Assembly: GCA_963727775.1 (NCBI GenBank) | Contig: CAVSHB010000003.1 | Coordinates: 512,001 to 576,000 of the forward strand | Length of the DNA stretch: 64,000 nucleotides | Reading direction: 5' to 3' | Origin: an uncultured Nitrospiraceae bacterium | GTDB taxonomy: Bacteria; Nitrospirota; Thermodesulfovibrionia; Thermodesulfovibrionales; SM23-35 | Part shown: in pieces, positions 46,987 through 51,518 of the stretch | Numbering within the stretch: position 1 is the stretch's first letter | Layout of the letters: the number at the start of each line of letters is the position of its first letter | Translations under genes and position numbers: made by a program | The notes under the pieces: generated by a model | What the model was told of the DNA's origin: nothing | Database searches by the model: none | What the model saw: only the letters and a program-made list of their open reading frames with translations

Positions 46987-48330
46987 TCATTTCCCTCTCA
47001 TTCTGCTTATCAGTTTGGCTATTCCGCCGATAAGGCTTTTTGGCCTGAGTTTAACCTCTATCGCATCGATATCTTCCATGACGCCGTCTCTGTCCACGAT
47101 GAAAGAGGCTGATTTTGCAATGGACAATACCTGGCTGGGATAGACACTTCTATGTCCCGTCATCAGAAAGCTTATGACACACGCTATTGCCGCATAAGGA
47201 GCCACCTGAGCTCCGAAAAGCTCCACAGCCATTAAACTTGCAGAAATCGGCGTATTCGCTGCACCTGCGAGGAGACTGACCATTCCTATTGCAGAAAATA
47301 TGTTTGGATCAAGCCCGAAGATCCTGCCAAAGAAGCTGCCGGAAGTAGATCCTATAAAAAAGATAGGCGTCACTATGCCACCGCTTCCGCCGAAATTAAG
47401 GGTAATCGAAGTAAATACCATTTTATAGAGGAAGGCTAACGCGGGAACCTCTCGACCTTCAAGGGCGCCTTTAATTGTATCCAGTCCAAGGCCTAAGTAT
47501 TGTGGAGACAGCAGAAACGTCAGCAATACAAGGACACCACCTCCCAATATTCCCTTATATGGCATCCATATTTTTATTCTCCTGCTCAGATTCATAGAAT
47601 ACTTCAAAATTTCAATGAACAGGAAAGAATAGAGTCCGAAAAATATGCCGCTTAAGCACACCTTAATAAAGAAAAGGCTACTAAAGACAGGGACAAAGTT
47701 TAGTTGGTGGTAGAAATAAGTTATTCCCAAACCGGAAGAAACTTGATAGCCCACAATACCTGCAACAAATGCTGGGAGTAGCACTTCGTACATCAAGCCG
47801 CCAACAAAGAGTACTTCAACGCCGAAAATGGCACCTGCGATAGGTGTCCCGAATACAGTGGCAAAACCCGCACTGATGCCGCATATAACCAGCTTCTTGC
47901 GGTCTCTGTTCCCAAACCTGAACAGGTCAGCAAATGCCGATGCAAGCCCTGCGCCTATTTGTGCACAAGGACCCTCCTTCCCTGCGGACCCACCAAGTGC
48001 AATTGTTATAATCGTCGCTATAAGCTTTATCGGGACAACAAGCGGATTTATTTTCCCGGAACGTTTATGTACCGCTTCTATTACTTTTTCCGTACCATGT
48101 CCTTCTGCTTCGGGGGCAAGATATTTTACAATTAGACTGCTAAGGAATAACGCTGCTGGAAGCAAGATAAAATAAAATTTATAGCCGCTCGTAAATGTTA
48201 TACCGAGACCTAATAGTTTCAGAAATATTGCTGTTGATAAGCCAACAATAACCCCTATACACGACGCCAGGATTACCCACTTGCTGACGCTGATAAATAG
48301 TATCGAACCTTCTATAACTCTTCTTTTCAT
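46987..48330 (-). CDS. CLC-family chloride channel/transporter
   Basis: GHGTE, GKEGP, GIVTP signature motifs. Confidence 0.92.
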   Translation of the reverse strand: MKRRVIEGSILFISVSKWVILASCIGVIVGLSTAIFLKLLGLGITFTSGYKFYFILLPAALFLSSLIVKYLAPEAEGHGTEKVIEAVHKRSGKINPLVVPIKLIATIITIALGGSAGKEGPCAQIGAGLASAFADLFRFGNRDRKKLVICGISAGFATVFGTPIAGAIFGVEVLFVGGLMYEVLLPAFVAGIVGYQVSSGLGITYFYHQLNFVPVFSSLFFIKVCLSGIFFGLYSFLFIEILKYSMNLSRRIKIWMPYKGILGGGVLVLLTFLLSPQYLGLGLDTIKGALEGREVPALAFLYKMVFTSITLNFGGSGGIVTPIFFIGSTSGSFFGRIFGLDPNIFSAIGMVSLLAGAANTPISASLMAVELFGAQVAPYAAIACVISFLMTGHRSVYPSQVLSIAKSASFIVDRDGVMEDIDAIEVKLRPKSLIGGIAKLISRMRGK

Positions 48331-49075: not shown

Positions 49076-49570
49076 ATGAAAAAAGCATTTTTATTGATTG
49101 CGATTACCATGTTCCTGACTTTCTCGTTAGCAATTAACTTTGCCCAGGCCGCAGACCAGATGATGGAAAAAGGCGGCATGATGAAAGATGGCATGATGGG
49201 TAAAGACATGATGATGGAAAAAGGACAGATGATGATGGACAAAGGCAAGATGATGATGGACAAGGGCAGTATGATGAAAGACGGCAAGATGGATAAGGAT
49301 GCGATGATGAAGCAAGGCGAAATGATGATGGAAGATGGCGAAATGATGACGAAGGAAAGCGGCATGATGATGGAAAACAAGAAAATGAAGCGGCACGGAA
49401 AGATGATGAAGAAGAGCGGGGACATGATGATGAAAGACGGAACTATGATGAAGGAAGGCAAGATGGATAAGAATATGATGATGAAAGAAGGTGGCATGAT
49501 GATGAAACAAGGCGAGATGATGATGAAGCAAGGCCAGAAGATGATGGATAAAGCCCAAAAGATGAAATAA
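49076..49570 (+). CDS. secreted methionine-rich protein
   Basis: AGGAG RBS, signal peptide ending AQA, mature part about one third Met in MM(M)KxG repeats. Confidence 0.88.
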   Translation: MKKAFLLIAITMFLTFSLAINFAQAADQMMEKGGMMKDGMMGKDMMMEKGQMMMDKGKMMMDKGSMMKDGKMDKDAMMKQGEMMMEDGEMMTKESGMMMENKKMKRHGKMMKKSGDMMMKDGTMMKEGKMDKNMMMKEGGMMMKQGEMMMKQGQKMMDKAQKMK

Positions 49571-50013: not shown

Positions 50014-50571
50014 ATGAAATACTCGACCTTATTACGAGCGCTCTTGCTTTCCGGACTCATTACCGGTGGTATCGTCTTTTCAGGCTGCATAGGAAAGTCG
50101 GATGGGGCTCACAGCGTATCAGCGCCGGGTCCGATCAAGGTCTATTCTGCAGAAAAAGGGGGCTACGTCATGAGCGAAACTGATAATAAGAGCAATGAAG
50201 AATGGAAAAAACTGCTGACACCCGAACAGTATCACATCCTGCGGGAAAAGGGAACCGAGCGGGCATTTTCCGGAAAATACGCAGACTTCCACGAGCATGG
50301 TATTTATCGTTGCGCGGCCTGCGAGCTAGACCTGTTCAGGTCGGAAGACAAATTTGAGTCCGGTACCGGATGGCCAAGCTTCACGGCACCTATCGCCGCG
50401 GAGAACATTATCACCAAACCGGACAATACTCTTTTCAGTCATCGTACAGAAGTACTTTGCCATCGCTGCGGCAGCCATCTCGGCCATGTTTTTGACGATG
50501 GTCCCAAACCGACAGGGCTGCGCTACTGCATGAATTCGGCTGCCCTGCAATTCGTGGCAACCAAGAAATGA
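50014..50571 (+). CDS. msrB: peptide-methionine (R)-S-oxide reductase, predicted lipoprotein
   Basis: GTERAF, CAAC/CHRC, GWPSF, HLGHVF, RYCMN; lipobox FSGC. Confidence 0.95.
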
Positions 50572-50595: not shown

Positions 50596-51204
50596 ATGAA
50601 AATGCTAATTACAGCGATGTTGGGACTTTCAGTCATCCTCATCGCAACTACCACAGTCATGGCTGCACCTAATCTTAAAAAGGCAACTTTTGCGGGAGGT
50701 TGCTTCTGGTGTATGGAGCACCCCTTCGATGAGATTCCCGGCGTGGTTTCGGTAACATCCGGCTACACTGGCGGGCAGAAAAAGAACCCTACCTACGAAG
50801 AGGTTTCGGCCGGAGGAACGGGGCACGCCGAGTCGGTCCAGGTCGTCTATGACCCGGAACGCGTCAGTTATGAGAAGCTCCTAAATGTCTTTTGGCACAA
50901 CATCGACCCGACCGCTAAGGACCGGCAGTTCTGTGATTCCGGGCATCAGTATCGAAGTGCTATTTTTTATCATTCTGAGGAACAGCACGAGCAGGCTCTG
51001 CAGTCGAAGGCACTATTGGAAAAGAACAAGCCCTTCAAAGAACCAATCGTAACCGAGATTGTTCAGGCCACCGAGTTCTACCCGGCAGAGGATTACCACC
51101 AACACTATTACAAGAAGAACCCGATCCGATACAAATACTACCGTTTTAGATGTGGTCGTGACCAAAGACTTAAGGAGCTGTGGGGCAATGCTGCAGGGCA
51201 TTGA
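50596..51204 (+). CDS. msrA: peptide-methionine (S)-S-oxide reductase with signal peptide
   Basis: GCFWC, GYTGG, GHAE, AEDYHQ.Y. Confidence 0.96.
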   Translation: MKMLITAMLGLSVILIATTTVMAAPNLKKATFAGGCFWCMEHPFDEIPGVVSVTSGYTGGQKKNPTYEEVSAGGTGHAESVQVVYDPERVSYEKLLNVFWHNIDPTAKDRQFCDSGHQYRSAIFYHSEEQHEQALQSKALLEKNKPFKEPIVTEIVQATEFYPAEDYHQHYYKKNPIRYKYYRFRCGRDQRLKELWGNAAGH

Positions 51205-51218
51205 TGGGATAGAATGAT

Positions 51219-51518
51219 ATGAAGAACCGAGTAACTCAGTCTTTGACTCTTTTTGTTTTGATGCTGTTTCTCTTTTCAGGTTATGGGGTTTCTCTCGCAC
51301 AAGATGCTAAAACATCCGAGGTTATGTTCTATGTGAAATGATTTGACGTTGGCAAGGAGGCCCTGGAAGGGCTGAAGGGAGTGAAGAGAGTTGAAAAAGG
51401 CTTTCGCAACTTTAAAGAGATAAATACTGTTTATTATGATCCAGCAGTGATTACGATTGAAGAAATGGAAATAGCCTTAAAGAAGGCAACTACTTACCTG
51501 GAACAGTTAAGTAGTTAA
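51219..51518 (+). CDS. secreted mini-MsrA/HMA-like protein with in-frame TGA (candidate selenoprotein)
   Basis: 99 codons, TGA at codon 41 (51339-51341) aligns with MsrA catalytic Cys; hairpin at 51359-51373. Confidence 0.7.

Follow-up and report, generated by a model that had tools for sequence, protein, structure and literature searches.

A short gene with a very likely recoded TGA beside the predicted exported methionine sulfoxide reductase genes of an uncultured Nitrospiraceae bacterium

The DNA analyzed here, referred to as the window, is a stretch of 64,000 nucleotides (nt) from an uncultured Nitrospiraceae bacterium (assembly GCA_963727775.1, contig CAVSHB010000003.1, positions 512,001 to 576,000). 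In it, the methionine sulfoxide reductase (Msr) genes msrB and msrA are followed, 14 nt past the msrA stop, by a short open reading frame (ORF), here called the mini-MsrA-like gene or mini gene, which contains a single in-frame TGA at codon 41 and ends with TAA (Table 1). An earlier interpretation made without database searches (the sequence-only reading) had proposed that this TGA encodes selenocysteine (Sec) at the position of the MsrA catalytic Cys and that a hairpin with a G-first loop lies just downstream of it. The frame reads as claimed, the TGA aligns with the Cys of the MsrA GCFW motif, and the hairpin folds as described; its loop opens with a G located 23 nt past the UGA. Codon 41 is very likely recoded as Sec, and the mini gene itself is real.

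Table 1. Coordinates of the features at the mini-MsrA-like locus in the window
Feature	Position	Strand	Basis or remarks
Met-rich predicted exported protein	49076..49570	+	51 Met in 164 amino acids (aa); 443 bp upstream of msrB
msrB	50014..50571	+	Lipoprotein-like N-terminus, two zinc-type CxxC, GTGWP; TIGR00357 and PF01641 over cut-off
msrA	50596..51204	+	Predicted signal peptide, GCFWC motif; TIGR00401 and PF01625 over cut-off
Mini-MsrA-like candidate selenoprotein gene	51219..51518	+	99 aa counting TGA as Sec; family conservation
Predicted signal peptide, residues 1-27	51219..51299	+	Basic N-terminus, hydrophobic core, S-L-A preceding QD
In-frame TGA, inferred Sec41	51339..51341	+	Motif F-x-V-x-U-[YF]-D-V-G; aligned to MsrA catalytic Cys
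SECIS (selenocysteine insertion sequence)-like hairpin GGCCCT-GGA-AGGGCT	51359..51373	+	Folding, conservation, consensus criteria of PMC13188914
Glu67	51417..51419	+	Present in 99/99 covering loci; aligned to MsrA active-site Glu
GG versus GGG of the contig C1 paralog	51500..51501	+	Last codons shifted

The codon at the site was compared across loci from a scan of genome contigs (35 loci), 100 relatives, and a 400-genome sample of the phylum (loci for 30 matches). Removal of duplicates, of matches of 40 bits or less, and of matches not covering the TGA site left 58 genome loci. A metagenome scan with a pattern that demanded Cys, and hence biased toward it, added 48 loci, 42 of them distinct past the same filter, for a set of 100. 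The 58 genome loci carried 47 TGA, 10 Cys (TGC or TGT), and 1 CGA codon and no TGG; TGG was also absent from the full set including the Cys-biased loci, and Cys stood in place of TGA at 52 loci. The sequence-only reading had looked to homologs for TGA or Cys rather than Trp, and this is what all but one of the loci carry. The locus counts are not independent events because the loci are related. On a quick tree computed from few columns with the site masked, the Cys forms fell into several groups among the Sec forms, and the Cys label required at least 4 changes, 2 of them forced by strong branches. The CGA locus (L033:4121) has altered residues at the next conserved positions and a weaker hairpin and is likely decaying. 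A true stop, or a TGA read as Trp, would leave a pseudogene or two tiny ORFs. Database proteins seem to fit this, since at the site column 66 of 120 have W, compared to 28 with C, 2 with R, and 1 with G, and the 23 with a gap are mostly 55-aa products beginning just past the site. The window copy also has one G fewer than its paralog on host contig C1, so that it ends with EQLSS instead of GTVK and has 58 rather than the usual 57 residues after Sec; this one-base difference may be real or an assembly indel. However, a database protein with W (P0025) is identical to a TGA locus (L048) over the 41 residues preceding the site, and because of this identity and the lack of TGG in any DNA locus, the W entries likely reflect the code chosen by the gene caller. 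Moreover, the sequence past the TGA is strongly conserved, Cys is its natural substitute, and the host terminates msrA itself with TGA. We regard a stop or Trp at this codon as very improbable.

The hairpin was present in both the minimum free energy (MFE) and the centroid structures. Its support comes from conservation and from a simplified bacterial SECIS (bSECIS) filter rather than from folding energy, which for the window sequence was ordinary compared to dinucleotide shuffles (z -0.83 to 0.04). The stem codons were near-frozen in the 47 TGA forms (Ala GCC in 46/46, Leu CTG in 46/47, and Gly GGG in 44/47) and the first loop base was G in 46 of them, with nearby fourfold sites variable (18/15/8/6 at Val+3 and 25/8/7/7 at Gly+13), whereas the same stem codons were relaxed in the 10 genome Cys forms (6/10, 5/9, and 5/9). 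Conservation of the hairpin among homologs, another check named in the sequence-only reading, was borne out. Hairpins of -7 kcal/mol or lower were found in 43 of the 47 TGA forms compared to 2 of the 10 genome and 5 of the 42 metagenome Cys forms. Our own simplified filter, modeled on PMC13188914, demanded a loop 16 to 37 nt past the UGA, a G within the first two loop positions, a stem of at least 4 bp, and an MFE of -7.5 or lower. It passed the window site, 39 of the 47 Sec forms, and 11 of the 52 Cys forms, against a background of 74 of 3000 random TGAs on contig C1. The filter is imperfect, since it missed one of the two host selD sites.

The host carries selA, two selB genes, two TGA-containing selD genes, and a tRNA-Sec (selC) with a UCA anticodon, that is, the Sec machinery on which the proposal depended. 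The selD genes lie at C1:1546371-1547294 and C4:188434-189357, both with an in-frame TGA, and the C4 copy has a DsbD-type membrane domain about 2.4 kb away. In the region C1:1561763-1566859, two tRNAs resemble tRNA-Sec but have a GCA (Cys) anticodon, and one of these lies just upstream of the second selB; they fit the selC* tRNA-Cys/selB* arrangement described in the part of PMC5389517 consulted. The canonical tRNA-Cys and tRNA-Sec are both on host contig C3.

Members of the mini gene family were found in several lineages. Close relatives with a name (84 to 87% identity) are in Nitrospirota and Syntrophales metagenome-assembled genomes, with more distant ones in Desulfobacterales, a pattern that by itself would place the host in or near Nitrospirota. 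An HMMER search of the whole library yielded 245 clusters when grouped at 50% identity, and the top 150 span 34 to 170 aa. Counting the host, 29 of the 401 genomes sampled from the phylum matched at E 1.5e-28 or better. Strong matches occurred only within selA-bearing taxonomic families and in 0 of 192 genomes of families without selA, a co-distribution that is confounded by kinship. selA was above the cut-off in 15 of 18 TGA-form genomes and in all 10 Cys-form genomes. At one locus (L153; G176:C1:219000-237000), the family is represented four times within 18 kb: twice by a TGA form, once by a Cys form immediately preceding msrAB, and once by a degenerate copy. The same stretch carries a Met-rich gene and genes for a sensor kinase and two response regulators. 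Two other loci (L147 at about 493-795 and L148 at about 462-776, both on the + strand) contain different ORFs for predicted exported MerP-like proteins, each with a single in-frame TGA where the metal loop would be. They score under all NCBIfam cut-offs and are possible further selenoproteins.

The mature part of the window protein is predicted to be a 72-residue ferredoxin-like domain with a beta-alpha-beta-beta-alpha-beta fold. The AlphaFold2 model had a predicted local distance difference test score (pLDDT) of 92 to 98 in blocks from residue 31 onward, and the signal-peptide region, with a hydropathy peak of 3.0 over 11 residues, was modeled as a helix (residues 5 to 22) at low pLDDT. MerP and ATP7B domains were the top fold-search matches, and the model superposed on MsrA cores (4lwj, 5fa9, and 3bqe) with a root mean square deviation (rmsd) of 1.4 to 1.5 Å over 67 to 68 residues. 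Sequence, model, and fold searches thus support the proposal of a probably exported one-Sec protein with the core fold shared by MsrA and heavy-metal-associated (HMA) domains. The proposed gapless alignment with MsrA, on the other hand, was confirmed only over its initial 27 residues; a gap of 17 residues is needed ahead of the E-x-x-x-V-x-YDP segment, and identity was 22% over 59 columns. Besides Glu67, Asp43 (98/100) and Asn/Asp69 (98/99) were conserved across loci, and a second Cys was absent from 99 of 100 mature domains. The MsrA active-site Glu is Glu94 in Escherichia coli and Glu55 in Clostridium oremlandii MsrA (CoMsrA), according to the consulted parts of PMC4333827 and PMC6316033; Glu67 was in register with it in two alignments, and a third shifted Glu67 into a gap. 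Profile probabilities were 97.9 for family-MsrA and 97.5 for family-HMA compared to only 26 for MsrA-HMA, and by profile the family appears roughly equally close to MsrA and HMA/MerP.

Among known families, MsrA (PF01625 and TIGR00401, including the 1-Sec CoMsrA, PDB 4lwj, with GUFWG) shares the core fold (rmsd 1.4 Å over 67 residues), the gapless run from strand 1 to the nucleophile, and the following aromatic residue, GV, G-aromatic, active-site Glu, and YDP; like the mini protein, CoMsrA has one Sec and no resolving Cys. However, the family protein has 72 residues compared to about 150 to 200, and the Trp of GCFW is replaced by Asp at 98 of 100 loci (x-U-[YF]-D-V). The Tyr47 loop, Tyr90, His137, and Tyr140 (CoMsrA numbering) are missing, the oxygen-site Tyr pair and the methyl-pocket His/Tyr falling in the 17-residue gap or past the end of the family protein. 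The Pfam MsrA model did not match the window protein, and the best member reached E 3e-4. We rejected assignment of the family to MsrA, because the methionine pocket and the second Cys are missing. HMA/MerP/CopZ proteins (PF00403 and TIGR02052) and the UxxU selenoprotein (NF041115) are likewise small exported ferredoxin-like domains, and the second helix and last strand of HMA/MerP/CopZ align well, but the family has no CxxC, UxxU, or GM loop and combines one chalcogen residue with conserved Asp and Glu; the NF041115 score was 26.1 bits against a cut-off of 95 bits. The VPGUxxT thioredoxin-like selenoprotein type 2 (NF041383; OS_HP5) was the top NCBIfam match of 60 of 61 members. That match, compared via the model only, covers a quarter of it (140-202 of 287), the part also matched by MsrA, at 31.6 bits against a 275-bit cut-off and without the VPGU motif. 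No Pfam or NCBIfam (release 20) model was over its cut-off for the window protein, and the 61 members gave weak matches only. New selenoprotein families are added regularly. None of the entries consulted in Table 1 of a 2026 review, which lists 119 families, shares this motif or architecture, the deep-Sep text (PMC12013277), as far as consulted, does not mention the family, which supplements of such surveys could list, and literature searches found no description of it. The family, very likely with a recoded TGA, is thus uncatalogued in the catalogues checked.

Gene context ties the family to methionine repair in the cell envelope. Of 100 loci, 64 carried msrA or msrB, and 10 different arrangements were observed, some of them truncated at contig ends. 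Within 1.5 kb, one or the other was present at all 10 genome Cys loci, at 26 of the 47 Sec loci, and at 26 of the 42 short metagenome loci, compared to a baseline of 0.3% for the share of host positions that lie close to an msrA core. Other recurring neighbors were MsrP-like molybdoenzymes, YHS proteins (one over the NF041384 cut-off), Met-rich proteins, and sensor kinases, and 39 of the 47 Sec loci had an Msr, MsrP-like, YHS, or Met-rich neighbor. In the window, the Met-rich protein resembles Met-rich oxidant scavengers. Divergent from its gene is a membrane protein gene (46987-48330, - strand), presumably a CLC-type channel by its motifs, with at least 2 further genome copies at about 90% identity. 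The host has two more msrB-msrA copies, at C1:809432-811040 (95% identical to the window), with a TGA-form paralog of the mini gene, and at C1:659588-660766 (89%), with none. Of the roles suggested in the sequence-only reading, a link to exported Msr is backed by this context, whereas metal binding is poorly backed.

A role in a periplasmic oxidant and methionine-repair system is probable. More tentatively, with somewhat less than even confidence, we favor an exported 72-residue selenoprotein with a bare MsrA-like catalytic core acting as an accessory redox helper of periplasmic Msr, because exported Msr enzymes require a periplasmic reductant, the neighboring MsrB appears to lack a recycling Cys, and selenium compounds can reduce MsrB2 and MsrB3. 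Neighboring MsrB had Thr or Ser in all 48 G-x-GWP motifs, at the variable position that we take to be that of the recycling Cys, and Cys in the complete domains (35/35) was limited to the catalytic one and the zinc pairs. The reduction of human MsrB2/B3 by selenium compounds comes from the consulted part of PMC6316033, and that of PMC9404787 describes a Haemophilus influenzae msrAB operon encoding thioredoxin-type and DsbD/CcdA reductant components. No thioredoxin-type or DsbD/CcdA family was found at E 1e-6 among 126 of the 177 neighbor cluster representatives (ORFs of at least 100 aa). One thioredoxin-like ORF was seen by eye in the larger L153 cluster, and two DsbD-type domains over cut-off lie elsewhere in the host genome. 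In the proposed mechanism, SelB would bind the hairpin and insert Sec, and the selenolate would attack MsrB or MsrA at its active-site Cys, oxidized to a sulfenic acid or a disulfide, and speed the recycling of the enzyme. Glu67 would protonate the leaving oxygen, the part played by Glu94 in MsrA, and the resulting Se-S link would be resolved by a periplasmic thiol partner or a second copy. This particular Sec/Glu67 chemistry is put forward a shade more cautiously than the helper role, and the "electron relay" of the sequence-only reading is a possible role. That a selenium redox domain linking HMA and MsrA recycles exported MsrA/MsrB in place of periplasmic thioredoxin is conceivable but unlikely.

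A number of observations weigh against a recoded helper of Msr. Compensatory change in the hairpin was almost nil (1 cell among 25 chosen Sec loci), and one TGA form (L092) has no hairpin. Three of the 18 TGA-form genomes had no intact selA match: G377 has selB and tRNA-Sec but no selA match, G283 (77% complete) has selA split in three pieces, and in G234 (86% complete) selA, selB, and tRNA-Sec were all unmatched. The best Foldseek and VIA matches were HMA/MerP domains. Neighboring MsrA has GCFWC in 48 of 48 cases, a possible built-in second Cys. Thr was likewise found in 26 of 26 matched MsrB motifs at 30 loci taken from genomes that lack a strong match to the family; the GTGWP state is therefore lineage-wide and does not point to the mini gene. 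Further, 19 of the 47 Sec loci had no msrA or msrB in the flanking DNA examined. The mini gene is also dispensable for Msr, since the host's third msrB-msrA copy is without it and a strong match occurs in just 28 of the 400 other genomes in the phylum sample.

The same neighborhoods could instead reflect a periplasmic selenoprotein that scavenges oxidants on its own or acts much like a peroxidase. It would be expressed together with the methionine-repair genes without contacting Msr, and its Sec would react directly with hypochlorous acid (HOCl), chloramines, or peroxide with Glu67 assisting. A lone Sec, with the second Cys absent nearly throughout, suits such a protein, and Sec loci lie beside MsrP-like molybdoenzymes (12/47), YHS (14), or Met-rich (6) genes, sometimes with no msrA or msrB in the examined DNA. 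There is also a precedent in Azospira suillum, where, by the consulted part of PMC4436054, hypochlorite defense joins a periplasmic Met-rich protein (MrpX) and a methionine sulfoxide reductase (YedY/MsrP) in one stress system, reminiscent of the Met-rich gene upstream of msrB in the window. The enzyme there is a molybdoenzyme, however, and that text names no small selenoprotein, whereas here thiol-dependent MsrA/MsrB are by far the commonest neighbors, often separated from the mini gene by very few bases (2 nt in the case of msrAB in L077). Because of the loci without msrA or msrB and the MrpX precedent, we hold direct scavenging to be almost as likely as an accessory role, though taken by itself it is doubtful.

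Two other functions appear less probable. The fold would suit a MerP/CopZ-like periplasmic binder of Cu(I), Hg(II), or Ag(I) that relies on a single Sec, possibly in dimeric form or together with Asp43/Glu67, but the GMxCxxC loop is missing and only its second Cys position is retained, after a 6-residue deletion. Furthermore, a metal P-type ATPase or MerP neighbor was found by tblastn (one MerP and one P-type ATPase query) at 1 of 100 loci, the one multicopper oxidase domain was on the opposite strand, and PF00403 was unmatched in the host genome; metal binding is improbable. A minimal methionine or small-sulfoxide reductase could be imagined from the nucleophile, following aromatic, and catalytic Glu in MsrA register, from the superposition on MsrA cores, and from Pfam PMSR being the commonest member match (15/61, compared to 3 for HMA, all weak). 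Still, the Asp in place of the GCFW Trp and the missing Tyr47 loop, Tyr90, His137, and Tyr140 regions argue otherwise, as does the inactivity of CoMsrA after mere loss of its C-terminal helical domain (PMC4333827), and we rate this as even less probable than metal binding.

Accessory redox help to periplasmic Msr remains the role we favor. Whatever the exact role, database entries hold the family as Trp-containing, truncated, or "CopZ" proteins, and its recognition adds a family to the bacterial selenoproteome, with a lone Sec without a CxxU-type partner, predicted export, and natural Cys forms that should ease expression. Its position between HMA and MsrA makes an origin of the MsrA core testable. 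If the protein does recycle Msr, envelope repair enzymes would have a new way of staying reduced, and the family would be a living model of the origin of the MsrA core. It would also explain how periplasmic methionine repair operates without an operon-encoded thioredoxin in some Nitrospirota and Desulfobacterota.
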